Shown here: positions 18,889 through 34,131 of the stretch, in pieces
Numbering within the stretch: the stretch's first letter is position 1
How the letters are laid out: each line of letters begins with the position of its first letter
IMG/VR virus record: IMGVR_UViG_3300024346_000044
Coordinates: 1-64,000 of that record
Source: a virus
Length of the DNA: 64,000 bases
Strand: one strand, 5' to 3'
Position numbers and translations under genes: made by a program
Notes under the pieces: generated by a model
The model's database searches: none
The model's input: the letters and a program-made list of their open reading frames with translations, nothing else
Told to the model about the DNA's origin: nothing

Positions 18889-19995
18889 ATGGCAAATTGG
18901 AAAAAAGTCTTAGTCTCAGGAAGTAGTATTGAGGTCGCAAGCATAACAGCATCCGTTGTTCCTACAAATAGTAGCACATCATTAAGAACTTTAATGGTTG
19001 ATCCTGCAACAGGTCACATCTTTAGAACAGGTTCTTATGGTGGTGGTGGAGGTGGAGGTTCATTAGAACCTTTAACTGACGGAAATGGTATTGTTGATTT
19101 TAGCTATGATGGTGGAACTGCAAGAACTGTTGCTGTTGAAGCAGATGGTGCTACATTAACAGTAGGATCAGGAGGAGTTAAAGTAACAGATTTAGGTATT
19201 GGTACAGGCCAGTTAGCCACAGATGCAGTAACAACAGTAAAAATAACTGATTTAAATGTAACAACAGGTAAACTTGCAGATGATGCAGTTACAACAGCTA
19301 AAATTGCTCCAAATTTAGGTACGTTTACAGGACATTCTTTTACAGGTTCATTCACAGGTTCATTTGCAGGTGATGGGTCAGGTTTAACAGGTATAACAGG
19401 TGCTACAACAACAGCAGCATTAACACAAGGAACAGGTGTTACCTCATTTAGTTTCAATGGTTCTTCAGCAGCTACAGTTTCAGTAGCAGGAGCAAGTGCT
19501 TTAACAGATGCAACATTAGTTAAATGGAATGACAGTGCAGGTACATTTGTAGATTCTAAAATCATAGAAGGTACTAATCTTATTACTATTGGAGCAGGTA
19601 CAGATGAAGTAAAAATACCAGGTGATTTAAGAGTACAAGGTACAGCTTCATTTCAAAATTCAACAACATTATTAGTTGAAGATAGATATATTTTAGTCAA
19701 CTCAGGTTCAACTTCAGGTAATCAAGGTGGTATTGTAATTCAAACAGAAAATACACAAAATGTAGGTCAATTATTTGGTTACAATGGTTCTACTAGTAGA
19801 TGGGCTATTAAATCAGCATTTGATGCAGAATCAACTACAGACTTTAATCCTCAAGCTTATATGGGATTAACTTCGGGTTCAGCAATAACAAATCCTAATG
19901 CTGCAGGTGCAAGTGGTGTAAATGAAACTATAATAAAACAATCAGGTAATATCTATGTTAATAATACTTTAGAAGAAATTTGGATTTACTCATAA
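18889..19995 (+). CDS. tail fibre-like protein (368 aa)
   Basis: MANWKKVLVSGS N-terminus shared with the 2020 aa fibre; AVTTxKI repeats; LLVEDRYI; late motif 18857. Confidence 0.7.
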   Translation: MANWKKVLVSGSSIEVASITASVVPTNSSTSLRTLMVDPATGHIFRTGSYGGGGGGGSLEPLTDGNGIVDFSYDGGTARTVAVEADGATLTVGSGGVKVTDLGIGTGQLATDAVTTVKITDLNVTTGKLADDAVTTAKIAPNLGTFTGHSFTGSFTGSFAGDGSGLTGITGATTTAALTQGTGVTSFSFNGSSAATVSVAGASALTDATLVKWNDSAGTFVDSKIIEGTNLITIGAGTDEVKIPGDLRVQGTASFQNSTTLLVEDRYILVNSGSTSGNQGGIVIQTENTQNVGQLFGYNGSTSRWAIKSAFDAESTTDFNPQAYMGLTSGSAITNPNAAGASGVNETIIKQSGNIYVNNTLEEIWIYS

Positions 19996-20046
19996 TTTTT
20001 ATTATATTCATTGTCAATAGTATCAAAAATTAAAAAAGTTATAAAA

Positions 20047-20220
20047 ATGGGATTGAAAGATAGGATTAGTCTCCAAAAACCAAAACAGGAATCAAATAAA
20101 CTTACTAAAAAAGAATTAGAAGTATTATTAAATATGGTAAAAAACAGCACCTTTAAAGGAGCTGATATAGAACCTATTTATAATTTAGTAATAAAACTCC
20201 AAGATCAATATACTAATTAA
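20047..20220 (+). CDS. small protein, possible fibre assembly chaperone
   Basis: LTKKELEVLL..FKGADIE..YNLVIKLQ; ATG 20047 preferred to TTG 20011. Confidence 0.55.
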   Translation: MGLKDRISLQKPKQESNKLTKKELEVLLNMVKNSTFKGADIEPIYNLVIKLQDQYTN

Positions 20221-20234
20221 AATTAATAATAGTT

Positions 20235-20417
20235 ATGTTTAATTTAACAGAATTATCTGTCCTAAGATCAGGATTAGAAACAGTAACCATATTAGGTAAA
20301 GAAGCTAGATTATTAGTTGCACTACAGGATAAAGTAGAAATGCATATAAATAAACTTCAACAAGGACCTCCCCAAGAAAACACTAAACTTTCTAAAGGAC
20401 GTAAAATCTCTAAGTAG
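20235..20417 (+). CDS. small protein, possible paralog of the preceding ORF
   Basis: FNLTELSVLRSGLETVTILGKEARLLVALQ resembles the preceding ORF's pattern. Confidence 0.55.
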   Translation: MFNLTELSVLRSGLETVTILGKEARLLVALQDKVEMHINKLQQGPPQENTKLSKGRKISK

Positions 20418-20436
20418 AGGTTGATATTTATCATAA

Positions 20437-20484
20437 ATTGTTGGCCCCCGGGAAGTGGACTCATATTGAGTAACCAACCACAAT
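20437..20484 (+). promoter_or_regulatory. GC-rich structured 5'-UTR element (candidate three-way junction RNA)
   Basis: attgt.gg/cc.acaat closing stem, short cc/gg hairpin, tgg-actca-tat-tgagt-aa-cca stem; lies between late motif 20424 and ATG 20496. Confidence 0.4.
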
Positions 20485-20495
20485 AAAATAATATT

Positions 20496-23400
20496 ATGCC
20501 AAATTGGAAAAAAGTAATTGTATCTGGCAGTGATGCAATATTATCTAATATAACTGCCTCAGGTAATATAAGTGCAAGTGGCGATGTTACTGCAAGTGGA
20601 TTTTTAGGAGAATTTATTGGTAATTTAACTGGAAATGCAGATACCGCAACAATATTAGCAACATCTAGAAATATTAATGGAGTTCCATTTAATGGCTCTT
20701 CAGCTATTACTGTCCCAGCTGCAGGTTCAACCTTAACTGATACTGTACCAATAAGTAAAGGTGGTACCAATTTAACTTCATTAGGTAGTGCTTTACAAGT
20801 ATTAAGAGTAAATGCTGCAGGAAATGGATTAGAATATTCTACATCTACTGTTGGAGATATAACTTCTGTATTAGGTGGAACTGGTATTACTGTTACAGAC
20901 AGCTCAGGACCTTCCCCTTCAGTAGCAATTGATTCTACTGTAGTAACTTTAACTGGTGCTCAAGAATTAACTAATAAGGATTTAACAGGTGCAAGTAATA
21001 CTTTCCCTACTTTTAACCAATCTACTACAGGAAATGCTGCAACCGCTACAATTTTACAAACATCCAGAACAATTGGTGGAGTATCATTTAATGGTTCTGC
21101 AAATATTAGCTTACCTGGTGTAAACTCAACAGGTAATCAAGATACATCAGGAACAGCTGCTTCTTTATCTGCTACCTTAATAACTGGAAGAGGAGGAACA
21201 GGTCTATCTTCTATAGGAACTTCAGGTCAAATATTATCAGTGAATGGAGCAGGAAATGCCCTAGAATATATTACACCAACCGTAGGAGATATAACAGCAA
21301 TTCAAACTACTACGGGTGATCAGATGGTAATTACAAATGGTAATGGTCCAATACCGTCTTTAGCTATAACAACGGCAACAATAGCAGATGCAGGAACAGG
21401 CTTAGCAACAGCTGATCAAATTCATACATTTGTAACTACACAAACAGATGAAACAGCAGCAGATACATCGGGTAATGCCTCAACTTCTACAAAAATTGCT
21501 TCTATTACTAATGCTAATATTGTCCAACTAGCGGCAACTCAAGAACTAACTAATAAAGATTTAACAGGTGCAGGAAATACTTTTCCAACGTTTAATCAAT
21601 CCACCACAGGCAATGCAGCAACTGCAACAACCTTACAAACAGCTAGAAATATTAATGGTGTAAGTTTTAATGGTAGTGCTGCTATAACAATAACTGCAGC
21701 GGGTTCTACACTATCAGACACAGTCCCAATAAGTAAGGGTGGTACAAATTTAACTTCAGTAGGTACAGCGGGTCAAATATTATCAGTGAATGGAGCAGGA
21801 AATGCCCTAGAATATATTACACCAACTGTTGGGGATATTACTGCTATAGAAACTACTACAGGAGATCAAATAGCAATTACAAATGGTAATGGTCCAATAC
21901 CATCTTTAGCAATAACAACAGCAGCGATTGCAAATGGAGGTACTGGATTAGCTACAGCAGACCAAATTCACACCTTTGTAACTACTCAAACAGACGAAAC
22001 AGCAGCAAATACTTCAGGTAATGCGGCTACATCAACTAAAATATCAAGCATTACAAATAGTAATATTGTTCAATTATCATCAACTCAAGCACTGACTAAT
22101 AAGGATTTAACAGGTGCAGGAAATACTTTTCCAACGTTTAATCAAAATACTACGGGTAATGCAGCTACAGCAACTACATTAGAAACCTCTAGAAATATTA
22201 ATGGGGTAGCATTTAATGGTAGTGCTGCTATAACTGTTCCTGCTGCAGGTTCAACCTTAACTGATACAGTTACAGTTGCAAAAGGTGGTACAAATTTAAC
22301 ATCCTTAGGTTCTGCGGGTCAAGTACTATCAGTAAACGGAGCAGGAAATGCTTTAGAATATACCACACCAACAACAGGAGATGTAACAGAAGTAACTTCT
22401 GCAACAACAGACCAAATAACAGTAGCAAATAGTACAGGTCCAAACCCTGCTATTTCAGCAGTAACAGGAGTTATAGCTAATGGGGAAACTTCTTTAGCAA
22501 CAGCTGACCAAATTCATACTTTTGTAACTACACAAACAGATGCTACAGCAGCAGATACAAGTGGAAACGCTGCTACAGCTACAAATGTAGCATATACAGG
22601 TTTAACAGGAACAGTTCCTACTTGGAATCAAAATACATCTGGAACTGCTGCTTCTTTATCTTCTGTCTTAATAACTGGAAGAGGTGGAACAGGTTTAAAT
22701 TCTATAGGAACTGCAGGTCAAGTATTAACAGTAAATGCCGCGGGGAATGGATTAGAATATGCTACTTCTACAACAGGTGATATTACTGGGGTAACTGCAG
22801 GAACAGGATTAACTGGAGGGGGTACGTCAGGTAATGTTACTTTAAATATTGATTCAACCGTAGCTACATTAACAGGTACTCAAACATTAACAAATAAAAC
22901 ATTAACATCTCCTACAATTGGAGATACTAGTAATATTACATTTCCAACATTTAACCAAAACACAACTGGAAACGCTGCTACTGCTACTTTAGCTGATAGT
23001 GCTACTGTATTAGCAACTCCTCGAGCAATTAATGGTGTTAATTTTGATGGTAGTGCTGCTATAACAATAACAGCTGCAGGTTCAACTTTATCAGACACAG
23101 TCCCAATAAGTAAGGGTGGTACAAATTTAACTTCAGTAGGCACAGCAGGTCAAATTCTATCAGTAAACGGAGCAGGAAATGCTTTGGAGTATATTACACC
23201 AACAGTAGGAGATATTACAGCAATTCAAACAACTACAGGAGATCAAATAGCAATTACAAATGGTAATGGTCCTATACCCTCATTAGCAATAACAACGGCA
23301 ACAATAGCAGATGCAGGAACAGGTCTAGCTACTGCAGATCAAATTCACACCTTTGTAACTACTCAAACAGATGCTACAGCAGCAGATACAAGTGGTAACG

Positions 23401-26400
23401 CAGCTACGGCTACAATATTAGAAACAGCTAGAAATATTAATGGTGTAAGTTTTAATGGTTCTGCAAATATTACAATAACAGCAGCAGGTTCTACACTATC
23501 AGACACAGTCCCAATATCAAAAGGAGGTACTGGAGCTACTAGTGCAGGTGCTGCAAGAACATCTTTAGGAGTAGATGCAGCAGGAACAGTTAATTATACA
23601 TTACCAACAGCAGCCGCAAATACATTAGGTGGTGTAAAAATTGGAAGTGGAATTTCAATATCAAGTGGTGTAATATCAGCAGATAATAATGGCACTATAA
23701 CAAGTGTTACAGGAACCGCACCTGTTGCTTCATCAGGAGGGACTACACCTGTTATTTCAATGGCAGCAGCGGATGATAGTACTAATGGATATTTAACTTC
23801 AACAGATTGGTCAACTTTTAATTCAAAAGGTAGTGGTGATGTAACAGAAGTAACTTCTGCAACAACAGACCAAATAACAGTAGCAAATAGCACGGGTCCA
23901 AACCCTGCTATTTCAGCAGTAACGGCAGCAATAGCAAATGCGGGAACAGGATTAGCAACAGCTGACCAAATTCATACCTTTGTAACTACTCAAACAGATG
24001 CAATAGCAGCAAATACATCAGGAACCGCTGCTTCTTTATCCTCTACTTTAATAACTGGAAGAGGGGGAACAGGATTAACTTCTATAGGAAGTGCATTACA
24101 AGTACTAAGAGTAAATGCCGCAGGAAATGCTTTAGAATATGCTACTTCAACAGTTGGTGATATTACTGAAGTTCAATCATCTACTACAAACCAACTTGTA
24201 GTAACAAACGGAGCAGGTCCAATACCATCATTAGCAATAACAACAGCAGCGATTGCAGACGCGGGAACAGGATTAGCAACAGCAGACCAAATTCATACTT
24301 TTGTAACTACTCAAACAGATGAAACAGCAGCCGATACATCTGGTAACGCGGCAACCTCAACAAAAATAGCAAGTATTACAAATTCTAACATTGTTCAATT
24401 AACTTCTACTCAAACATTAACAAATAAAACATTAACATCTCCAACAATTGGAGATACTAGTAATATTACATTCCCAACTTTTAATCAAAATACAACGGGT
24501 AATGCTGCAACAGCTACAACATTAGCAACCGCAAGAACTATTGCAGGTGTATCATTTGATGGATCCGCTAATATATCATTAAATAATAATTCAATTACAA
24601 ATGGTGCAGGATATACTACTAATACAGGTACATTAACTGGTAATGGCGCAACAAATAGAGTTCCGATCTATAATGGGACTACATCATTCACAACAGACTC
24701 AGGATTTACATATTCATCTGATATATTAAGTACAGAAAAATTAAATATAACAGCTATAGCAGCAACTGTATCCGAGAATACTACAATCATGATAGATGGC
24801 GATGGCCAAACATTGACCAGAGAATTAGGTTCAAATGCTTACAATTCAACGACAATCGGTACAAATACAAATGCATTAACAGTTGATAATGCAACAGTTC
24901 AATTAAATTCCGGAACTACATTTAATGGTAGTGCAGCAAGAACATTATCTGCAAAAACAGCAGCAATTGCAAATGGTGGGGCAGCATTAGCAACAGCAGA
25001 CCAGATTCATACATTTGTTACTACACAGACCGATGCTATAGATGCCGATACCTCAGGTAATGCGGCTACAGCTACTATATTAGCAACTGCAAGAACTATT
25101 GCAGGTGTATCATTCAACGGTTCAGCTAATATATCATTAAATAACAACGCAATAACTAATGGAGCAGGTTACACAACAAATGCTGGAACATTAACTGGTA
25201 ATGGTACAACAAATAGAGTTCCAATTTATAATGGAACAACTTCATTTACTACAGATAGTGGATTTACATATTCATCTAATATATTAAGTACAGAAAAATT
25301 AAATATAACAGCTATAGCAGCAACTGTATCCGAGAATACTACAATCATGATAGATGGCGATGGCCAAACATTGACCAGAGAATTAGGTTCAAACGCATTT
25401 AATAGTACAACAATCCCAACTAACAATAACCAATTAACAAACGGAGCTGGGTTTACAACAAATGCTGGAACATTAACTGGAAACGGTACATCAAATAGAG
25501 TTCCAATCTACAATGGAACAACTTCATTTACTACAGATAGTGGATTTACCTATACCGGTAACAAATTAACTGCAGAAGGATTAAATGTAACCGGCCCAAT
25601 ATCAGCATCCATAGGAGCTGCTCCTTACATGAAATTAGATCTGGAAAGACAACTTTTTGGTGACACTGACGGAAATTCTAATGGTGCAACATTTATGTTA
25701 GATCAGACCTTAGGTTTTATTGTAGGATCGCCGATTATATCTTTAGATGGTGCAGTGACAATTAATGACTCAAGCAACGATGTAGACTTTAGAGTTGAAT
25801 CTAACGGCAACGCTAATATGTTGTTTGTAGATGCTGGAAATAATAGAGTTGGTATAGGAACTAATAGTCCAACTGAAGCACTAGATGTCAATGGTGCTTT
25901 TACAGCTACAAGTGTTAGATCTACAAGCGGAGGAACGGATGGTGGTTTTATTTTAAAACAATGGGCAGGTAGTACTAGCTACGCTTTTTTAGGTACTAAT
26001 GGTATGTCAGGAGTAGAGTACTGCATGATATCAGATGGTACTAATACTTTCTTAGGCGCTGGGACAGGTGGAGCTTTAAAATTAAGAGGACCTGCTAATG
26101 ATTCTTCTCCAGAAGTAATTATTAATGGAACTATAGTAGAAGTTAATACTGGTGATCTAAAAGTAACTGATGGATCTATAGCTGTAGGTAATATAACTAA
26201 TTCTACTACAGATGGTAGAATAGACGCTTCAAATGACGTTGTAGCTTTTTCATCATCAGATAAAAAATTAAAAGAAAATATTAAACCAATTAAAAATGCA
26301 TTAGATAAAGTATCTCAAATTTCAGGTGTTGAATTTGATTGGAAAGAATTAACTGAAGAAGAAAAATTATCTATACACGGGAATGAAGGGCATGATGTAG

Positions 26401-26558
26401 GAGTAATAGCACAAGAAATTGAAAAAGTATTACCTGAAGTAGTTCAAACTAGAGATAACGGTTATAAAGCAGTTAAATATGAAAAAATAGTTCCATTATT
26501 AATAGAATCAATAAAAGAATTAAAAGCCGAAATAGAAGAACTTAAAAAATCTAAATAA
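20496..26558 (+). CDS. long tail fibre with repeat modules and C-terminal intramolecular chaperone (peptidase S74)
   Basis: Thr/Ala/Gly-rich repeats; VGIGTNSP; C-terminal SSDKKLKENI..GVIAQEIEKVLPEVV..YEKIVPLLIESIKEL. Confidence 0.9.
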   Translation: MPNWKKVIVSGSDAILSNITASGNISASGDVTASGFLGEFIGNLTGNADTATILATSRNINGVPFNGSSAITVPAAGSTLTDTVPISKGGTNLTSLGSALQVLRVNAAGNGLEYSTSTVGDITSVLGGTGITVTDSSGPSPSVAIDSTVVTLTGAQELTNKDLTGASNTFPTFNQSTTGNAATATILQTSRTIGGVSFNGSANISLPGVNSTGNQDTSGTAASLSATLITGRGGTGLSSIGTSGQILSVNGAGNALEYITPTVGDITAIQTTTGDQMVITNGNGPIPSLAITTATIADAGTGLATADQIHTFVTTQTDETAADTSGNASTSTKIASITNANIVQLAATQELTNKDLTGAGNTFPTFNQSTTGNAATATTLQTARNINGVSFNGSAAITITAAGSTLSDTVPISKGGTNLTSVGTAGQILSVNGAGNALEYITPTVGDITAIETTTGDQIAITNGNGPIPSLAITTAAIANGGTGLATADQIHTFVTTQTDETAANTSGNAATSTKISSITNSNIVQLSSTQALTNKDLTGAGNTFPTFNQNTTGNAATATTLETSRNINGVAFNGSAAITVPAAGSTLTDTVTVAKGGTNLTSLGSAGQVLSVNGAGNALEYTTPTTGDVTEVTSATTDQITVANSTGPNPAISAVTGVIANGETSLATADQIHTFVTTQTDATAADTSGNAATATNVAYTGLTGTVPTWNQNTSGTAASLSSVLITGRGGTGLNSIGTAGQVLTVNAAGNGLEYATSTTGDITGVTAGTGLTGGGTSGNVTLNIDSTVATLTGTQTLTNKTLTSPTIGDTSNITFPTFNQNTTGNAATATLADSATVLATPRAINGVNFDGSAAITITAAGSTLSDTVPISKGGTNLTSVGTAGQILSVNGAGNALEYITPTVGDITAIQTTTGDQIAITNGNGPIPSLAITTATIADAGTGLATADQIHTFVTTQTDATAADTSGNAATATILETARNINGVSFNGSANITITAAGSTLSDTVPISKGGTGATSAGAARTSLGVDAAGTVNYTLPTAAANTLGGVKIGSGISISSGVISADNNGTITSVTGTAPVASSGGTTPVISMAAADDSTNGYLTSTDWSTFNSKGSGDVTEVTSATTDQITVANSTGPNPAISAVTAAIANAGTGLATADQIHTFVTTQTDAIAANTSGTAASLSSTLITGRGGTGLTSIGSALQVLRVNAAGNALEYATSTVGDITEVQSSTTNQLVVTNGAGPIPSLAITTAAIADAGTGLATADQIHTFVTTQTDETAADTSGNAATSTKIASITNSNIVQLTSTQTLTNKTLTSPTIGDTSNITFPTFNQNTTGNAATATTLATARTIAGVSFDGSANISLNNNSITNGAGYTTNTGTLTGNGATNRVPIYNGTTSFTTDSGFTYSSDILSTEKLNITAIAATVSENTTIMIDGDGQTLTRELGSNAYNSTTIGTNTNALTVDNATVQLNSGTTFNGSAARTLSAKTAAIANGGAALATADQIHTFVTTQTDAIDADTSGNAATATILATARTIAGVSFNGSANISLNNNAITNGAGYTTNAGTLTGNGTTNRVPIYNGTTSFTTDSGFTYSSNILSTEKLNITAIAATVSENTTIMIDGDGQTLTRELGSNAFNSTTIPTNNNQLTNGAGFTTNAGTLTGNGTSNRVPIYNGTTSFTTDSGFTYTGNKLTAEGLNVTGPISASIGAAPYMKLDLERQLFGDTDGNSNGATFMLDQTLGFIVGSPIISLDGAVTINDSSNDVDFRVESNGNANMLFVDAGNNRVGIGTNSPTEALDVNGAFTATSVRSTSGGTDGGFILKQWAGSTSYAFLGTNGMSGVEYCMISDGTNTFLGAGTGGALKLRGPANDSSPEVIINGTIVEVNTGDLKVTDGSIAVGNITNSTTDGRIDASNDVVAFSSSDKKLKENIKPIKNALDKVSQISGVEFDWKELTEEEKLSIHGNEGHDVGVIAQEIEKVLPEVVQTRDNGYKAVKYEKIVPLLIESIKELKAEIEELKKSK
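20990..25100 (+). repeat. shuffled internal repeat modules of the long fibre
   Basis: ATADQIHTFVTTQTD x7, TFPTFNQxTTGNAATAT x5, plus AAGSTLxDTVP and VNxAGNALEY modules; boundaries approximate. Confidence 0.85.
24721..25393 (+). repeat. identical ~115 bp direct repeat in the fibre gene
   Basis: atatattaagtacagaaaaa...gaattaggttcaaa at 24721-24835 and 25279-25393. Confidence 0.85.
25565..25882 (+). repeat. 318 bp segment duplicated at 29411-29728 (copy 1)
   Basis: Manual alignment, ungapped, about 17 mismatches. Confidence 0.9.
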
Positions 26559-26992
26559 TGGCATTACCAGCATCAGGACCTATATCTTCAAGTCAAGTAG
26601 CCACTGAATTTAGTGTATCTCAAACTAATATTTCTTTATCAAATTTAGGTACCCAATTATCAACACCTATTACAGCAGGCCAACCAGTTAATTTAGCTAC
26701 TAGTTTCTATGGTCAAAGTAGTGGAGTTTCTGTTACAGCTTGGACTTTTGCTTCAAACAATCAAGAAACATGGGAATCAGTAGAAGATTTTTGTGAAAAC
26801 CTTCCATCTTTTGGCCCTACTCTTTATCATGATGGTTCTGGAACATACCCATCCACAAATGATGTTATATATAGTGACGATCCAGGAACTACTACAGTTC
26901 CGGGGGGGATTTATGGATACCAAGCAGGAAGAACTAAAACTCCATTAACAGTTGATAATAATGGAAAAGTTACTAGTGTAGGAGAATGTTAA
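26558..26992 (+). CDS. fibre-tip/adhesin-like protein (144 aa)
   Basis: MALPASGPISSSQVATEF N-terminus typical of proteins following S74 fibres; start overlaps the fibre stop codon. Confidence 0.55.
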   Translation: MALPASGPISSSQVATEFSVSQTNISLSNLGTQLSTPITAGQPVNLATSFYGQSSGVSVTAWTFASNNQETWESVEDFCENLPSFGPTLYHDGSGTYPSTNDVIYSDDPGTTTVPGGIYGYQAGRTKTPLTVDNNGKVTSVGEC

Positions 26993-27624
26993 TGAATAAC
27001 TTAAATAAACATACAGAATATTTAAATAGTAAAGATAAACATATAGAGTACTTAAATAACAAAGTTTATTTTACAAAAGATAACAGACTATTAACTCCTA
27101 ATGCTCAACCAGTTATGATGGGATGGGAAGATCCCATAATGAAAGATGCAGCATCCTTAATATGTCATAACAAAGGAAAAATACTTAATGTAGGATTTGG
27201 ATTAGGGCTTATAGACACTTACATTCAATCTCATCAAGTACAAGAACATTGGATTATAGAAGCACATCCAGATGTACAAAATAAAATGAAAAATGATGGA
27301 TGGGGTAAAAAATCTAATGTTACCTGTTTGTTTGATAAATGGCAAAATGTTTATGATGAATTGCCTAAATTTGATGGTATTTATTTTGATACTTGGAAAG
27401 AGTCGTTAGATCTATTTCATAAAATAGTACCTAATTTATTAAAACCTGGAGGCAAATACACGTATTGGTCACCTAATGATTTGGAAGTCCATTCTGTATT
27501 TAAAACAAATGAATATAAAGTAGAAAATGGTATTACAAAATTAGATCATATATCATCAAACCAAAAATATTACAATACTTCAAAAGATTTATTTAATTAT
27601 AAACTAATAACTAAAAAATTATAA
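26992..27624 (+). CDS. class I SAM methyltransferase, RMT2/GAMT family (guanidino-N methyltransferase-like)
   Basis: PVMMGWE, ILNVGFGLG, HWIIEAHPDV, FDGIYFDTW, LLKPGG; taATG coupling to the upstream gene. Confidence 0.85.
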   Translation: MNNLNKHTEYLNSKDKHIEYLNNKVYFTKDNRLLTPNAQPVMMGWEDPIMKDAASLICHNKGKILNVGFGLGLIDTYIQSHQVQEHWIIEAHPDVQNKMKNDGWGKKSNVTCLFDKWQNVYDELPKFDGIYFDTWKESLDLFHKIVPNLLKPGGKYTYWSPNDLEVHSVFKTNEYKVENGITKLDHISSNQKYYNTSKDLFNYKLITKKL

Positions 27625-27671
27625 AACTTTTATTCTTTATCTATAATTTACATATTTATAACAAAATTTAA

Positions 27672-30356
27672 ATGGCTAAAAAACTCTCAAAAGTAGGAAT
27701 AGTAACTAATCAATTAGTTCTTCCACATCAAGTCACCCAGTCAATAGATGCATTTACTGGAGAAGAAGATTATGATATTAACTTATCTGGATCTTTAGCA
27801 ATTACTGGTTCTACTACAATTAAATTAGGAGGATTAACAATTTCAGATTCTGTCCTAGGTCCTGGTAGCTTAAATGTAACTAATATTACAGCAAGTAATT
27901 TACAAGTTGTTAATATATCTTCATCATTTGTTACTTCATCAACAATCTATACTTCAGGATCAAATATATTTGGAGATGAACCTTCTGATACACATACTTT
28001 TATAGGAGGTATTACAGCATCAGGTGTTATGAGTGCAAGTGGAGTTGTATTTGGAAGTCAAGTTCGAACCCCTGCAGTTTTTACAAATACAATAACTGAA
28101 AAAACATCTACCTCTGGTGTAACCATAGAGGGTACATTACTTAAAGATAATAATATAAGTACAGCAGGTACTATTACAGCTGGTGGGAATACATCAATAC
28201 CTAGAAACTCTAAATTTATTTTAGATGGAGATGATGGTAGTAATAGTTATATAACTCAAACCACCTCAAACATTTTACAAATAGTAAATCAGGGTAATAC
28301 CTTAATATCAGCAGGATCTGCTAATTTAACATTTACATCTATTCCAGTTATAATTTCTAATCAAAATTTCACAGTAACTGGAGGTGTAATTACAGGTGAT
28401 GGGGCAGGATTAACTAATATACCCGCAGCAGGAATAACTGGATTAAATCTATCTAGGATTGAAAGTGGTAGTGTTACGGCATCTATTTCACCTGATAAAG
28501 GCTTTGAGGTAAATACAAACATAACCTCTTCAGGAAATATAAGTGCTAATGGAAATATACAAAACTTAGATGGTTATGCATTATTCCAAAGAACATCAAC
28601 AGGTGTTGATTCTGTATTAAATGTAAGACAATTATCAACAGGAAATATTGCAGAATTTGGAACTAATACTAACAATGAATTAGTAATAATTAAATCGGAT
28701 GGAAAAGTTGGAATTGGGACTAATTCACCAACTGAAGCACTACATACTAAGACCACAGGCAATACAGTTGCAAAATTTGAAACTTCACTATCTTCAGATT
28801 TAGCAATACAACTAACTAATTCTCAAGGTAGTATGTTCTTTGGACTTGGGGGTGGAGAGGAATTTGCAGTAGGAACAACTTCTGATTTAAATGGAACTGA
28901 TAACTTATTTATAATAGAACAAAATGGCAACGTTGGTATAGGGAATACTAGTCCATCTCAAAAACTTGACGTAACTGGAAATATTAAAGTAAGTGGAGAC
29001 ATAGAGACTGCAACATTTACAAACCCTACACTAGATATAGCAGCTGGATCAGCTAACATGACAGCAAATATACCTTTAACTTTTGGTGCTTTACTAGCAG
29101 CGAATTTAGGTAGATTAGATATAAAACATGATAATTCCAACGGTAGTATTACTAATCGTTCAGGAGATTTAACAATTGGAAACACAGCAGCAAATAGTGA
29201 GATAATATTAGATAGTACAAATGGTGTAAAAATATCTAATATTGCGGATAATAGCAACACTGGATACAAAACAGTAGTAGTTGACACCTCTACTGGACAG
29301 TTATATAGAACTGGATCCTATGGTGGTGGAGGTGGTGGCGGCGGTGCTGGAATATTTATTCAAACAGGTTCATATTATGCTACAACAAATGATTTACAAG
29401 TAACAGGCTCATTAACTGCAGAAGGATTAAATGTAACCAGCGCAATATCAGCATCCATGGGAGCTGCTCCTTACATGAAATTAAATCTAGAAAGACAACT
29501 TTTTGGTGACACTGACGGAAATTCTAATGGTGCAACATTTGTGTTAGATCAGAACTCAGGTTTTGCTGTAGGATCGCCGATTATATCTTTAGATGGTGCA
29601 GTGACAATTAATGACTCAAGCAACAACTACGACTTTAGAGTTGAATCTAACGGCAACGCTAATATGTTGTTTGTAGATGCCGGAACTAATAGAGTTGGTA
29701 TAGGAACTAATAGTCCAACTGAAGCACTTGACGTAACTGGAAATATTGTTGCAAGTGGTGAAATGGAATGTACTAAGTTTGTAGCTAATGCAGCAGGAGG
29801 TTTTGAGTTTGAAATAGACGGAGACAATCAATTCAACATGATACACAATTTTGCTAACAGGTCAATGTTTTTTACAACTGCAGCTGGTACTGGTACTATA
29901 AATTTTGGAACTAATGCTCAAAACTCACAGGTTAGTATAACATCTGCTGGAAATTTAAATGTTGTTAATGATCTAACTGTTGGTGGAAGCGTAACTACAG
30001 GTGCTATAACAGCATCAGGCGATATAAGTTGTAGTTTCCAAGAATCAACAATAACTGCAACAACAGGATCATTTAATCACATTATTACAGATGGTGAAAC
30101 ATTAGAATTTAGAGATGCCACTACAAGAGCAAAAGTAGGAGCTTTAAAATTTGATGCAACTAATGGATTAGAAGTAAAAGATAGTGCGGGTAATGAAGGA
30201 AAATTAAAAACCAAAGAATTAAACATTCCATCTGGAGGTAGTATGATAATAGATGCAAGTCAAATTAATTTTAATAGTTTACCAACTTCAGACCCAGGAG
30301 TAGCAGGACGATTATGGAGAGATTCAAGAGATGGTAAAATCGTTGTATCTGGTTAA
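27672..30356 (+). CDS. mosaic tail fibre protein (894 aa)
   Basis: SGSNIFGD, three VGIG(T/N) repeats, LPTSDPGVAGRLW C-terminus; shares modules with three neighbouring fibres; late motif 27652. Confidence 0.75.
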   Translation: MAKKLSKVGIVTNQLVLPHQVTQSIDAFTGEEDYDINLSGSLAITGSTTIKLGGLTISDSVLGPGSLNVTNITASNLQVVNISSSFVTSSTIYTSGSNIFGDEPSDTHTFIGGITASGVMSASGVVFGSQVRTPAVFTNTITEKTSTSGVTIEGTLLKDNNISTAGTITAGGNTSIPRNSKFILDGDDGSNSYITQTTSNILQIVNQGNTLISAGSANLTFTSIPVIISNQNFTVTGGVITGDGAGLTNIPAAGITGLNLSRIESGSVTASISPDKGFEVNTNITSSGNISANGNIQNLDGYALFQRTSTGVDSVLNVRQLSTGNIAEFGTNTNNELVIIKSDGKVGIGTNSPTEALHTKTTGNTVAKFETSLSSDLAIQLTNSQGSMFFGLGGGEEFAVGTTSDLNGTDNLFIIEQNGNVGIGNTSPSQKLDVTGNIKVSGDIETATFTNPTLDIAAGSANMTANIPLTFGALLAANLGRLDIKHDNSNGSITNRSGDLTIGNTAANSEIILDSTNGVKISNIADNSNTGYKTVVVDTSTGQLYRTGSYGGGGGGGGAGIFIQTGSYYATTNDLQVTGSLTAEGLNVTSAISASMGAAPYMKLNLERQLFGDTDGNSNGATFVLDQNSGFAVGSPIISLDGAVTINDSSNNYDFRVESNGNANMLFVDAGTNRVGIGTNSPTEALDVTGNIVASGEMECTKFVANAAGGFEFEIDGDNQFNMIHNFANRSMFFTTAAGTGTINFGTNAQNSQVSITSAGNLNVVNDLTVGGSVTTGAITASGDISCSFQESTITATTGSFNHIITDGETLEFRDATTRAKVGALKFDATNGLEVKDSAGNEGKLKTKELNIPSGGSMIIDASQINFNSLPTSDPGVAGRLWRDSRDGKIVVSG
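29411..29728 (+). repeat. 318 bp segment duplicated at 25565-25882 (copy 2)
   Basis: Manual alignment with copy 1. Confidence 0.9.
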
Positions 30357-30445
30357 TAATATTATAATTTGGATACCTAAAAAAAACATTTTACATTTAT
30401 CAACAATAAATTACATTTTTAACAAATTAACCGATATTTATAACC

Positions 30446-30700
30446 ATGGAAAAAAAAATAGTTTTAGACAAAAAAGAAATTAGTAAATTAAAAGAATTAA
30501 GACAAAATTTCACCAATTTAACAAATACTTTAGGAAATTTAGAAATTCAAATAATGAATTTAAACATACAAAAAGAATCTCTAAAAGAAACACTTTTAAA
30601 TTTACAAAAAGAAGAAATAGTTTTAGCAAAAGAATTAGAAACTAAGTATGGAGAAGGATCCATTTCTTTAGATTCTGGTGAATTTTTACCCATAAAATAG
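30446..30700 (+). CDS. small coiled-coil protein (84 aa)
   Basis: Coiled coil ending LETKYGEGSISLDSGEF; late motif 30434 and a host-type promoter at 30368-30399. Confidence 0.7.
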   Translation: MEKKIVLDKKEISKLKELRQNFTNLTNTLGNLEIQIMNLNIQKESLKETLLNLQKEEIVLAKELETKYGEGSISLDSGEFLPIK

Positions 30701-30744
30701 ATTTTTAAAAAATTTTGACATATTTATCATAAAAATAACACACA

Positions 30745-32466
30745 ATGGCAGAAACATTAATTTCCCCTGGGGTATTAGCAAGAGAGCAAGATCAATCCCA
30801 AATCACCTCACAACCTGTACAAGCGGGAGCAGCAATTATAGGTCCAACAGTATTAGGCCCAGTAGAAAGACCAACTTTGGTTACTACTTTTTCCGAATAT
30901 TTAGCTACTTTTGGTGGTGCTTTGCAGAGTGGTTCAGATGAATACTCATACTTTACAAGTATTTCAGCATTTAATTATTTCCAAGGTGGAGGTACTTCAT
31001 TAATAGTAACTAGAGTAGTATCAGGTTCATATTCTGCTGCTACATCATCATTTATTTCAGGTTCAAATGCACCAGCACTTGCTGCGGGTACTGCTTTTAC
31101 ATTAGAAACAATTGGTTCTGGAACTATAATGAATAGTACTAGTACATTAACTTCAAAAGGAGCTTTACCAAGTGGTAGTTCTAATAATGTTAGATGGGAA
31201 ATAACAACACCAGATACATCATCAGGAACATTTACACTTTTAGTTAGAAGAGGAGATGATAATACAAAATCAAAAAGAGTATTAGAATCTTACACAAACT
31301 TATCATTGGATCCAAAATCTTCAGGATACATAGCTAGAGTAATTGGCGATCAAACGACTACATTACTAGGTAGTGGAACAGCAGAACCTTACTTACAACA
31401 ATCAGGTAATTTTCCTAACGCTTCAAGGTATATAAGAGTAAAATCAGTAGATAAAAAAACACCAGATTATTTAGATAATGATGGAAATGCAAAATCTCAA
31501 TATACAGCTTCAATTCCAATCGCTTCTGCAGGTACATTTGGAGATGCTGAAGGTGGTATTAAAGCCGGAGCTAATTTTTATGATACTATAAACTCTACAA
31601 ACACACAAGGATTAGTAGAAGCAAATTATACAGATGCAATTAATTTATTAGCAAATAAAGATGAATTTAAATACAATATTATCACAGTACCAGGTTTAGT
31701 TTATGTTGATTATCCAACACCTTTAAACTCATTAATTGATAATACAGCAACTAGAGGAGATGCTATAGTAATAGCAGATACTGTAAATTATGGAGCTTCA
31801 ATTACAAATGTAATTTCAACAGCAGCAAGTATAGATTCATCATATACAGCAACATATTGGCCATGGTGTCAAATTACTGACCCAAGCACAGGACAATTAG
31901 CATGGGTTCCAGCTTCAACATTAATACCAGGAGTATATGCAGCTAATGATGCTTCAGCAGAAACTTGGTTTGCACCCGCAGGTATTAATAGAGGTGGATT
32001 AGGAGTAGTAAGACAAGCAGAAAGAAAATTAACACAAACAAATAGAGATAGTCTATATGTAGGAAAAGTTAATCCAATAGCTACATTCCCTGGAAGAGGA
32101 GTAGTAGTATTTGGCCAAAAAACACTACAAACAAGAGCAAGTGCTTTAGATAGAGTAAATGTTAGAAGATTATTAATTAGTCTAAAATCATTTATTTCAC
32201 AAGTAGCAGATAATTTAGTATTTGAACAAAATACAGCAGCTACTAGAAATAATTTCTTAGGACAAGTAAATCCATTTTTAGAAAGTGTACAACAAAGACA
32301 AGGATTATTTGCTTTTAAAGTAGTAATGGATGATAGTAACAACACACCAGATGTTATTGATAGGAATCAATTAGTGGGTCAAATATTTGTTCAACCTACA
32401 AAAACAGCAGAATTTATATACCTAGATTTCAACATTTTACCAACAGGAGCTACTTTCCCGGCATAA
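30745..32466 (+). CDS. tail sheath protein (gp18-like)
   Basis: ISPGVLARE, WFAPAGINRG, VNPIATFPG, FGQKT, DRVNVRRLL, VFEQN, PTKTAEFI. Confidence 0.95.
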   Translation: MAETLISPGVLAREQDQSQITSQPVQAGAAIIGPTVLGPVERPTLVTTFSEYLATFGGALQSGSDEYSYFTSISAFNYFQGGGTSLIVTRVVSGSYSAATSSFISGSNAPALAAGTAFTLETIGSGTIMNSTSTLTSKGALPSGSSNNVRWEITTPDTSSGTFTLLVRRGDDNTKSKRVLESYTNLSLDPKSSGYIARVIGDQTTTLLGSGTAEPYLQQSGNFPNASRYIRVKSVDKKTPDYLDNDGNAKSQYTASIPIASAGTFGDAEGGIKAGANFYDTINSTNTQGLVEANYTDAINLLANKDEFKYNIITVPGLVYVDYPTPLNSLIDNTATRGDAIVIADTVNYGASITNVISTAASIDSSYTATYWPWCQITDPSTGQLAWVPASTLIPGVYAANDASAETWFAPAGINRGGLGVVRQAERKLTQTNRDSLYVGKVNPIATFPGRGVVVFGQKTLQTRASALDRVNVRRLLISLKSFISQVADNLVFEQNTAATRNNFLGQVNPFLESVQQRQGLFAFKVVMDDSNNTPDVIDRNQLVGQIFVQPTKTAEFIYLDFNILPTGATFPA

Positions 32467-32513
32467 AAACATAGAAATTAGATATTTATAATAGAATTAA
32501 AAGATAAAACAAA

Positions 32514-33002
32514 ATGGCAGTATTAAATCCCAACGAAATATTTTTCACAGCATTTGAACCAAAACAAGCTAATAGGTTTATTATGTATGTAGATGGAATT
32601 CCATCATATATGATAAAAGAAGTAGGTGAAGTGAAAATATCACAAGAAATAGTAACTTTAAATCACATCAATGTTGAGAGAAAAGTTAAAGGTAAATCAA
32701 AATGGGAAAATTTAAGTATGACTCTTTATGATCCAATCACACCATCAGGTGCTCAAGCGGTAATGGAGTGGGTAAGACTACATCATGAATCTGTAACAGG
32801 TAGAGATGGTTATTCTGATTTTTATAAGAAAGATTTAACAATCAACGTTCTAGGTCCAGTAGGTGACGTAGTATCAGAATGGGTAATTAAAGGCGCATTT
32901 ATAGTAGATGCAGGATTTAAAGGATTTAACTGGGATACAGGTGCTGAAGCTCAAACTATTGCTTTAACAATATCAATGGATTATGCAGTACTAAACTTTT
33001 AA
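32514..33002 (+). CDS. tail tube protein (gp19-like)
   Basis: FEPKQANRF, KGKSKW, LYDPI, YKKDL; follows the sheath gene. Confidence 0.9.
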   Translation: MAVLNPNEIFFTAFEPKQANRFIMYVDGIPSYMIKEVGEVKISQEIVTLNHINVERKVKGKSKWENLSMTLYDPITPSGAQAVMEWVRLHHESVTGRDGYSDFYKKDLTINVLGPVGDVVSEWVIKGAFIVDAGFKGFNWDTGAEAQTIALTISMDYAVLNF

Positions 33003-33029
33003 AAAAAAATATCAAATATTACAAAAAAT

Positions 33030-33054
33030 AGCTTGGCTCATGTCAAGCTTTTTT
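33030..33054 (+). terminator. rho-independent terminator after tube gene
   Basis: agcttggc-tcat-gtcaagct hairpin followed by a T run. Confidence 0.7.
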
Positions 33055-33104
33055 GTATTTTTAATATGTATTACTAGAATTAAAGTTATTAATAAATAAA
33101 AGAT

Positions 33105-33851
33105 ATGGAAGAAAAAAAACTGAAGTTTCCTACCGAAACGATAGACCTACCTTCAAAGGGTCTAATTTACCCTAAAGATAACAATTTATCAAGTGGAAAA
33201 GTAGAAATGAAATACATGACTGCTAAGGAAGAAGATATACTAACTAATCAATCATACATCGAAGCTGGCACGGTATTAGACAAGTTACTGCAATCACTCA
33301 TAGTCTCCGACATAGTGTATAATGATTTAATTACTGGCGATAAAAACGCATTGCTTATAGCTGCTAGAGTTTTAGGATATGGTAAAGATTACAAATTTGA
33401 ATATAAAGGAGAAGAAGTAGAAGTTGACTTAAGTGAAATTGATAATAAAGAATTTGATGAAGATTCAATTAAAAAAGGTGAAAATAGATTTCCATTTACT
33501 TTACCAAATTCCAAAACTGAAATTGAATATAAAATTCTAACAGCAAATGATGAGAAAAAAATTGCTGCCGAAATTAAAGGTTTAAAGAAAATTAACAAAA
33601 ACGCAAACCCAGAACTATCTACAAGATTAAAATACATGATTGTATCTGTAGATAAAGATGAAGAAAAAAAATCAATAAGAGAGTTTGTTGATAATTATTT
33701 TCTAGCTATGGATTCAAGAGCGCTTAGAAAACATATAGCAAATACACAACCAGATGTTGAATTAACAATACCAGTAGAGACTAGTGGTGGCACGGAGGAC
33801 ATCACTATTCCTATTAATCTTAACTTTTTTTGGCCTGACGCAGAGGTATAG
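33105..33851 (+). CDS. tail assembly chaperone / gp26-like baseplate hub assembly protein
   Basis: IDLPSKG, MTAKEEDIL, GDKNALLIAAR, ends NFFWP; located between tube and tape measure. Confidence 0.75.
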   Translation: MEEKKLKFPTETIDLPSKGLIYPKDNNLSSGKVEMKYMTAKEEDILTNQSYIEAGTVLDKLLQSLIVSDIVYNDLITGDKNALLIAARVLGYGKDYKFEYKGEEVEVDLSEIDNKEFDEDSIKKGENRFPFTLPNSKTEIEYKILTANDEKKIAAEIKGLKKINKNANPELSTRLKYMIVSVDKDEEKKSIREFVDNYFLAMDSRALRKHIANTQPDVELTIPVETSGGTEDITIPINLNFFWPDAEV

Positions 33852-34131
33852 ATTCGAATTATTTAATCAAATCCATGAGATAGTATTCCATGGAAAAGGA
33901 GGTTATGACTTCCACACTATATACACTATGCCTATATGGTTGCGCAACTTTACATTTTCTAAAATGAAAGAATTTTTTGAAAAAGAAGCAGCTGATTATA
34001 AAAAGGCACAATCTAATGGTAAAGGTACATCTACTGTTATTGACACAGATGGTATGGTTCAAACCCCATCTTTTATGGAAAAAGGTAATGCTTCTAAACC
34101 GGCCTATTCAACAAAACGGGCTAAAAACTAG
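33823..34131 (+). CDS. probable frameshift-accessed extension of the chaperone (gp51-like)
   Basis: +1 frame across T7 at 33825-33831; FFGLTQRYRFELFNQIHEIVFHGKGGY..MPIWLR; no ATG before the conserved-looking part. Confidence 0.55.
   Translation, partial: TFFGLTQRYRFELFNQIHEIVFHGKGGYDFHTIYTMPIWLRNFTFSKMKEFFEKEAADYKKAQSNGKGTSTVIDTDGMVQTPSFMEKGNASKPAYSTKRAKN

Follow-up and report, generated by a model that had tools for sequence, protein, structure and literature searches.

A stand-alone RMT2-type guanidino methyltransferase behind a fibre-tip gene in an uncultured marine T4-related phage: family, context and candidate substrates

Introduction

Protein arginine methylation is treated as an essentially eukaryotic modification, and to our knowledge bacterial and phage examples are scarce. 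What, then, would a phage methylate with an enzyme of this kind? The question is raised by 64,000 nucleotides of viral DNA, the first 64 kb of a 72-kb IMG/VR virus record (IMGVR_UViG_3300024346_000044; completeness rating 43%) and here called the window, in which a small open reading frame (ORF) follows directly on a long tail-fibre gene and a gene for a fibre-tip protein of 144 amino acids (aa). By sequence, profile and structural model, this ORF is predicted to encode an intact, guanidino-directed methyltransferase of the RMT2 type that depends on S-adenosylmethionine (SAM), has the fold of guanidinoacetate methyltransferase (GAMT) and consists of the bare catalytic domain.

Results

The ORF encodes a bare RMT2 domain with intact catalytic residues

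All six motifs on which an original prediction, made from the letters of this DNA, had based its assignment to RMT2 and GAMT (QPVMMGWE, ILNVGFGLG, HWIIEAHPDV, GWGKKSNV, FDGIYFDTW and LLKPGG) are present in the translation. A large protein collection contains 196 relatives of about this length; the 120 listed, the window protein itself among them, all carry the tag PF27704.1, and the sources behind our search for longer forms name PF27704 'RMT2 domain-containing protein'. A local copy of Pfam, which lacks the PF27704 model, gave only a sub-threshold match to Methyltransf_3, and the PHROGs and NCBIfam profile libraries returned nothing for the methyltransferase. Searched against PDB, phmmer retrieved four distinct sequences, all of them GAMT (best E 6.1e-17), and a profile built from 17 family members retrieved GAMT only (E 1.2e-23).

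Structure prediction led to the same place. The AlphaFold2 model of the methyltransferase (predicted local distance difference test score, pLDDT, 88.9) alternates strands and helices in a Rossmann-like manner, and Foldseek ranked GAMT structures 3orh and 1xcj first (E 4e-15 to 2e-13; template-modelling score 0.70-0.73). Spermidine synthase was the runner-up fold, from rank 6 (E 7e-8), and was absent from both sequence searches of PDB. GAMT is thus best by sequence, profile and fold, and the protein does not cluster with spermidine synthases, so that the result named in advance as refuting the original prediction, a grouping with spermidine synthases or generic small-molecule methyltransferases, did not appear; together with the catalytic residues, these searches bear out the RMT2/GAMT identification.

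In GAMT, Glu45 is a guanidino ligand and Asp134 the proposed catalytic base. The aligned residues in the phage enzyme are Glu48 and Asp135. Glu48 is a glutamate in 223 of 225 aligned rows from phages, metagenomes and prokaryote loci (the exceptions being one gap and one serine), and its equivalent is kept in all 13 forms with ankyrin repeats and all 34 with tetratricopeptide repeats (TPR), while Asp135 is invariant in every group, the most divergent phage clades included. In the SAM-binding glycine loop, N68, G70 and G72 are invariant across the family alignment; in the wider groups G70 and G72 are invariant throughout, and N68 is so save for three 'struct' rows with E.

The enzyme shares more with RMT2 than with the only relatives of solved structure. 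Eukaryotic RMT2 proteins (yeast; plant, algal and fungal) have the PF27704 domain in common with it, at 39-53% identity over the domain, as well as the VMMxWE, ILNVGFGxG, HxIIEAHP and FDGIYFDT motifs and the C-terminal region, whereas they measure 350-430 aa with ankyrin repeats at the N-terminus. GAMT (1xcj, 3orh) matches it in fold, approximate size, single-domain build and the aligned Glu/Asp pair, yet is only 25% identical by structural alignment (our trees contain no GAMT sequences) and acts on a small molecule in the animal creatine pathway. The only clear prokaryotic members encoded by cells are alphaproteobacterial TPR-RMT2 proteins from Rhodospirillaceae metagenome-assembled genomes, which are 36-46% identical over the domain and, unlike the phage enzyme, extend to 390-470 aa with N-terminal TPR. 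In searches for longer forms, the domain followed ankyrin repeats in 13 listed eukaryotic proteins and TPR in all 39 listed bacterial-type proteins (~400 aa); neither kind of repeat is found in the 210-212 aa window ORF, which is the catalytic domain alone. The alphaproteobacterial proteins (L088-L100; P0125-P0169) are a possible bacterial family of protein arginine methyltransferases in their own right, for which we found no published description.

The family is far commoner on phage contigs than in prokaryotic genomes

Scanning IMG/VR with a family profile as guide brought up 192 stretches that encode a relative, the best 80 of which were kept; the same kind of scan over 185,579 prokaryote species, represented by one genome each, yielded 24 loci. 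The RMT2/GAMT domain is thus far commoner on phage contigs than in prokaryotic genomes, and most of the 24 loci belong to Alphaproteobacteria/Rhodospirillaceae assemblies with the long TPR form. Among 1.84 billion cluster representatives, HMMER found 1498 proteins at E <= 1e-3 and 636 at E <= 1e-10. In our trees the eukaryotic sequences branch apart from the phage clade (support 87-92), and the alphaproteobacterial TPR forms make up a long-branched clade of their own (support 100). Short-form enzymes from three assemblies labelled Methanosarcinales, Woesearchaeota and Hanamia (L085, L086 and L087) fall within the phage clade; the bins in question probably include phage contigs or prophages.

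The original prediction had called such enzymes atypical of phages, a statement that holds only with a qualification, since 'GAMT' already figures among the auxiliary genes of ocean viruses: Tian et al. (2024) describe virus-encoded GAMT (K00542) in nine Arctic populations, enriched 85.4-fold over microbial homologues, and propose creatine synthesis (PMC11360552). Compared by description only, their gene resembles ours in lying on marine prokaryotic virus contigs and in being enriched in viruses, as are our 192 viral stretches against 24 prokaryotic loci; it differs in that the creatine-step label comes from KEGG orthology and, in the parts of that paper dealing with the gene, stands without an RMT2 domain assignment, genomic context or a link to fibres. 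A transcribed GAMT gene is also mentioned for P2-like viruses (PMC13100340). Two further candidate sources on GAMT (PMC8226683, PMC7466765) were set aside, the term being absent from their main text. Literature searches for phage RMT2 enzymes (RMT2 with bacteriophage, arginine N-methyltransferase 2 with phage, pelagimyophage methyltransferase) found nothing.

In the window lineage the enzyme gene is joined to a variable fibre-tip gene

Both stop/start overlaps reported for this locus are confirmed in the sequence: TAATG at 26556-26560 holds the stop of the long-fibre gene and the start of the tip gene, and TAATG at 26990-26994 the tip-gene stop and the methyltransferase ATG at 26992. The second fibre gene begins 47 nt past the methyltransferase, with no overlap. 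Contigs with the same structural genes as the window keep the succession of fibre C-terminus, tip gene and methyltransferase but differ in what comes next, which may be a second fibre gene and the sheath gene, a head-tail adaptor gene, or ~4 kb of unknown genes ahead of the terminase and portal genes. In nearly all alleles the methyltransferase start overlaps the tip-gene stop (d = -6). Fibre coupling as originally proposed therefore stands within the window's myovirus lineage, where it extends over 12 IMG/VR contigs, 23 tip alleles and the three arrangements.

The gene also sits at a boundary. Metagenome contigs from three runs (X1, X8 and X20) start, or drop in similarity, exactly at 26986/26987, being divergent upstream of the methyltransferase start and conserved from the start onward, so that a hypervariable cassette ends, on its right, at this conserved gene. 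This pattern points to a recombination boundary at 26986-26987 between the variable tip gene and the conserved enzyme gene.

More divergent RMT2 enzymes occupy related positions. Other members of the lineage (sheath 59-70% and tube 74% identical to the window's) carry very divergent RMT2 enzymes within the structural module. A second clade, 34-43% identical to the window enzyme, lies directly behind a tip-family gene on seven contigs, that tip gene ending in a tail of the Peptidase_S74 type, and another clade (32-40% identical) is found behind a capsid gene, before an adaptor gene or behind a fibre gene. Free trees separate the two tip-adjacent enzyme clades; as an approximately unbiased (AU) test does not reject a single clade (p 0.553), we make no claim of convergence.

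One arginine of the tip protein accompanies the enzyme

An alignment of the 23 unique tip alleles that have the enzyme behind them, with pairwise identities of 27-99% (median 46%), contains 17 invariant columns, and Arg125 is one of them. Wherever a window-type enzyme lies downstream, this arginine is kept (all 10 IMG/VR loci and all 19 metagenome loci). It occurs in 0 of 49 and 0 of 57 loci without an enzyme downstream, several of which have too little downstream sequence to judge and most of which are distant homologues. In a lineage in which the methyltransferase has been deleted (see below), with a tip protein 88% identical to the nearest enzyme-followed allele, a single one of the 17 invariant columns has changed, and the change is R125 to K.

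The AlphaFold2 model of the tip protein (pLDDT 71.8) is of low confidence over residues 1-54 and has a compact C-terminal domain (55-144; 82-95), in which Arg125 sits in the turn between modelled strands 117-123 and 126-132. Foldseek found no match for this model in PDB at E <= 0.001. Elsewhere among phages the tip domain forms part of ORFs of 407-1533 aa or has a Peptidase_S74 domain behind it. Two loci (L194:97-741 and L246:1983-2666) combine the tip domain and an SxRRLK-type tail in one ORF, the tail passing Pfam Peptidase_S74 in the former and being recognisable by sequence only in the latter; the window's 144-aa protein stops where this tail would start, like a pre-cleaved form. A prediction of the complex between enzyme and tip protein scored 0.28 (mark 0.32) and is evidence neither way.

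A proposed tip-protein methyltransferase and what weighs against it

Family, fold, intact catalytic residues, linkage and dispensability are the demonstrated part of the explanation we propose. The phage protein would be an active, stand-alone SAM enzyme of the seven-beta-strand class with the GAMT fold, methylating a guanidino nitrogen and belonging to a large phage RMT2 clade in which the targeting repeats known from cellular relatives, ankyrin or TPR, are absent. In the window lineage its gene is accessory and would be translationally coupled to the small tip gene at the right-hand border of the hypervariable fibre cassette. Its chemistry would be N-methylation of arginine in a protein, and the likeliest substrate in this lineage would be the tip protein from the overlapping upstream gene, at Arg125 in a presumably exposed beta-hairpin. 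We lean towards a protein substrate because the listed eukaryotic and bacterial RMT2-domain proteins, to which the enzyme is 39-53% identical, bear ankyrin or TPR repeats, both of them protein-binding modules, and because the known target of yeast Rmt2, Rpl12, is a protein (PMC10265986). For the tip protein in particular, the co-variation of Arg125 with the enzyme is the one lead in favour. The link to the tip gene is supported by the overlap kept across alleles, by the three downstream arrangements and by the second tip-adjacent clade. That the enzyme is an RMT2 protein arginine methyltransferase acting on the tip protein, or on another virion protein, we regard as a serious possibility, short of a probability.

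Several observations weigh against it. The first is genomic context, which we surveyed by calling ORFs in all loci and labelling neighbours by BLAST against PHROG-annotated references, for 81 distinct IMG/VR contigs. Most carriers hold the enzyme gene outside the fibre module: 43 have it next to clamp-loader genes, downstream of GroES, GroEL and Hsp20 genes in a T4-like replication module (between the genes for the large and small clamp-loader subunits in 41 of these), in 18 it is separated from a DNA methyltransferase gene (phrog_67) by one or two small genes, and three have other neighbours (sugar epimerase, sulfotransferases, unknown). A fibre C-terminus and/or tip gene lies directly upstream in 12; in four a window-type enzyme stands at the contig start, and in one it is deleted. 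The family-wide part of the fibre-coupling claim thus fails. In two carrier genomes rated 100% complete (164 and 166 kb), moreover, no homologue of the tip protein was found by a search that did recover the window's own copy (4e-58); fibre linkage is consequently not a property of the whole family, and the family's general substrate cannot be this tip protein. Window-type enzymes are nested within the clamp-context clade (FastTree support 95-99; Shimodaira-Hasegawa-like approximate likelihood ratio test, SH-aLRT, 96-99), so that their place in the fibre module looks secondary.

The second is conservation. On contigs with the window's structural genes, identity to the window protein is 74-92% for the enzyme, as against 31-57% for the tip protein, 42-60% for the sheath and ~54% for the terminase. 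That the enzyme is conserved where its neighbours are not argues for purifying selection; it is also much more conserved than the protein on which it would act.

The third is dispensability. The methyltransferase is an accessory, dispensable gene in the window lineage. Of 27 sheath-related loci whose sequence reaches 5 kb or more beyond the sheath gene on its upstream side, only 4 have a relative of the enzyme in that region. A close relative, L155 (tube 95%, hub 87% and sheath 75% identical), keeps the gene order without it, running from fibre through tip-like gene, second fibre and an 85-aa gene to the sheath. In L023 (1442-1576; also L271 and L272) the methyltransferase is cut to its first 23 codons and a short out-of-frame tail through a clean internal deletion of ~526 bp between short repeated words, as seen by comparison with the intact L269, whose flanks and downstream sequence are 98.9% identical; the L023 tip-protein sequence without a methyltransferase downstream recurs in a second assembly.

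The last concerns Arg125 itself. The change to lysine in the deletion lineage happened once; had a single invariant site changed by chance, it would have been this one with a probability of roughly 1/17, and we treat it as a lead and not a result. Alleles with the arginine form one clade, so that arginine and methyltransferase may simply have been inherited together. The second tip-adjacent clade has glutamine or a gap in this column. In L155 the residue is serine, which says little because 8 of the 17 invariant columns differ there.

A host or non-structural phage protein as target

Much of this evidence would suit an enzyme that methylates arginine in a host protein or a non-structural phage protein, in takeover of the cell or counter-defence, its position beside the tip gene being an incidental consequence of an insertion hot spot or of the flank of a cassette swap. 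Such a role would fit the 64 of 81 IMG/VR contigs with non-fibre contexts, the two complete carriers that have no tip-family gene, the metagenome contigs of three runs that break at the methyltransferase start, and a gene that can be lost. It would also fit an enzyme phylogeny at odds with the phage backbone: relative to the window, L003 is 91% identical in the enzyme and 50% in the sheath, and L122 70% in the sheath and 38% in the enzyme. The nesting of window-type enzymes within the clamp-context clade suggests that the enzyme gene has been transferred between co-occurring T4-like phages. As a functional analogy, the T4 proteins Alt, ModA and ModB are arginine ADP-ribosyltransferases that modify protein arginine side chains during infection; they too are phage-made enzymes that alter arginine covalently, with a different fold and with ADP-ribosylation from nicotinamide adenine dinucleotide (NAD) instead of methylation from SAM. 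What a host target leaves unexplained is why two divergent enzyme clades lie directly behind tip-family genes, why an R-to-K change accompanies the deletion and why the stop/start overlap is kept across 23 alleles, and we judge it somewhat unlikely.

A small-molecule substrate

The enzyme could instead be a GAMT-like auxiliary metabolic gene product that makes creatine from guanidinoacetate or methylates free arginine, agmatine or a related compound. Its bare catalytic domain of about GAMT size, free of targeting repeats, would be in keeping with this, as would GAMT being the only relative of solved structure, a patchy distribution typical of auxiliary metabolic genes, and the published enrichment of viral K00542 with its proposed creatine synthesis, an assignment made, as that paper presents it, by KEGG orthology alone (PMC11360552). 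Set against this, the enzyme is closer to RMT2-domain proteins than to GAMT, and the amidinotransferase superfamily (PF02274) was not found in five carrier phage records, two of them complete, in a search whose control was positive in 3 of 14 genomes and which covered phage records only. The result weighs against a phage-borne creatine pathway. We know of no creatine/phosphocreatine system in the likely bacterial hosts. A small-molecule substrate seems improbable to us.

Another kind of substrate, such as a nucleic-acid base or modified nucleotide, or no adaptive role in the window phage, is very improbable: the 18 contigs near a DNA methyltransferase gene and the dispensability of the enzyme gene speak for it, and the guanidino-binding catalytic pair conserved in every clade, the purifying selection argued above for an enzyme 74-92% conserved beside variable neighbours, and searches that returned no relative with a nucleic-acid substrate speak against it.

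The source virus and the organisation of the locus

The window comes from what its genes indicate is an uncultured, T4-related marine myovirus. They include a Gp23-type major capsid protein, terminase, portal, adaptor and baseplate hub, with a replication module beginning at ~47 kb; the closest isolates by sheath comparison are Flavobacterium phages (51% identity). DNA nearly identical to this stretch occurs in 20 listed runs, which belong to 14 studies and bear the label of marine, seawater or brine metagenome. A DNA search of INPHARED phage records with window positions 24000-34000 gave no match. A protein search of the same records with the methyltransferase gave one, an uncultured 634-kb phage (37% identity), and therefore no isolated phage with the gene. 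The features of the locus are collected in Table 1; the sheath and tube genes nearby place the fibre/methyltransferase cassette within the structural module.

Table 1 Features of the fibre, tip and methyltransferase locus in window coordinates
Feature	Position	Strand	Basis
Long tail fibre, 2020 aa, repetitive, C-terminal intramolecular-chaperone domain	20496..26558	+	ORF; last 400 aa match Pfam Peptidase_S74, E 2e-18
Fibre-tip ('adhesin-like') protein, 144 aa	26558..26992	+	phrog_21885 (unknown function), E 5.9e-6
Arg125 codon AGA of the tip protein, candidate methyl acceptor	26930..26932	+	Allele alignment, model
Predicted stand-alone RMT2-domain SAM-dependent guanidino N-methyltransferase, 212 aa (210 aa from ATG 26992)	26986..27624	+	Sequence, profile, fold
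Glu48, aligned with GAMT Glu45	27127..27129	+	Alignment
SAM-binding glycine loop ILNVGFGLG, residues 66-74	27181..27207	+	Family alignment
Asp135, aligned with GAMT Asp134	27388..27390	+	Alignment
Second fibre protein, 894 aa	27672..30356	+	ORF; 217-aa segment in common with the long fibre, 58% identity
Tail sheath and tail tube genes	30745..33002	+	Pfam Phage_sheath_1, Phage_T4_gp19; phrog_23 E 3e-73

A terminator scan of 19500-33200 found none between the fibre and sheath genes; terminator-like matches within the long-fibre gene, which is made of long internal repeats, are copies of the repeat. A Sigma-70 scan of the same region gave 46 promoter-like sites, with 62.5 expected, and is uninformative because the promoters are likely of a Bacteroidota type that the model does not cover. 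The only true metatranscriptome run among those searched contained 5% of the sequence words. One contig from a metatranscriptome library spans a tip-gene allele into the methyltransferase start; with DNA carry-over possible, it is a weak hint that transcription runs from tip gene into methyltransferase.

Two of the other contexts are of interest in themselves. The 43 clamp-loader loci (L018-L079; e.g. L019:3978-9282) lie on a widespread group of aquatic T4-like phage contigs with Hsp20, GroES and GroEL genes just upstream of the clamp-loader genes, the RMT2 gene being inserted between the genes for the two clamp-loader subunits. Elsewhere (L074:9019-12241, L040:6141-6998) the enzyme gene clusters with one or two DNA methyltransferase genes (phrog_67 and others), which might constitute a methylation or anti-restriction island.

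Discussion

The arginine methylation catalysed by yeast Rmt2 is on the delta nitrogen. The described reaction is monomethylation of Rpl12 at Arg67 (PMC10265986). The phage enzymes carry the RMT2/GAMT domain in bare form, with the guanidino-binding residues intact in every clade, and what this means depends on the substrate. Should it be a small molecule, the creatine function proposed in print for viral GAMT genes (PMC11360552) could be put to the test.

Since a natural deletion and an R-to-K variant exist, and tip protein and enzyme are both small and soluble-looking, the question can be put directly by co-expression and mass spectrometry. Were the substrate a protein, the family would open a class of viral arginine methyltransferases, and were it the fibre tip, the modification would be one of the virion itself, with consequences for host range. 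In its fullest form, which we think rather unlikely to hold as a whole, the product of a coupled phage gene would methylate an invariant tip arginine and so modify the virion after translation, to tune host recognition or shield the tip, and the wider clade would consist of so far unrecognised viral arginine methyltransferases with lineage-specific targets.

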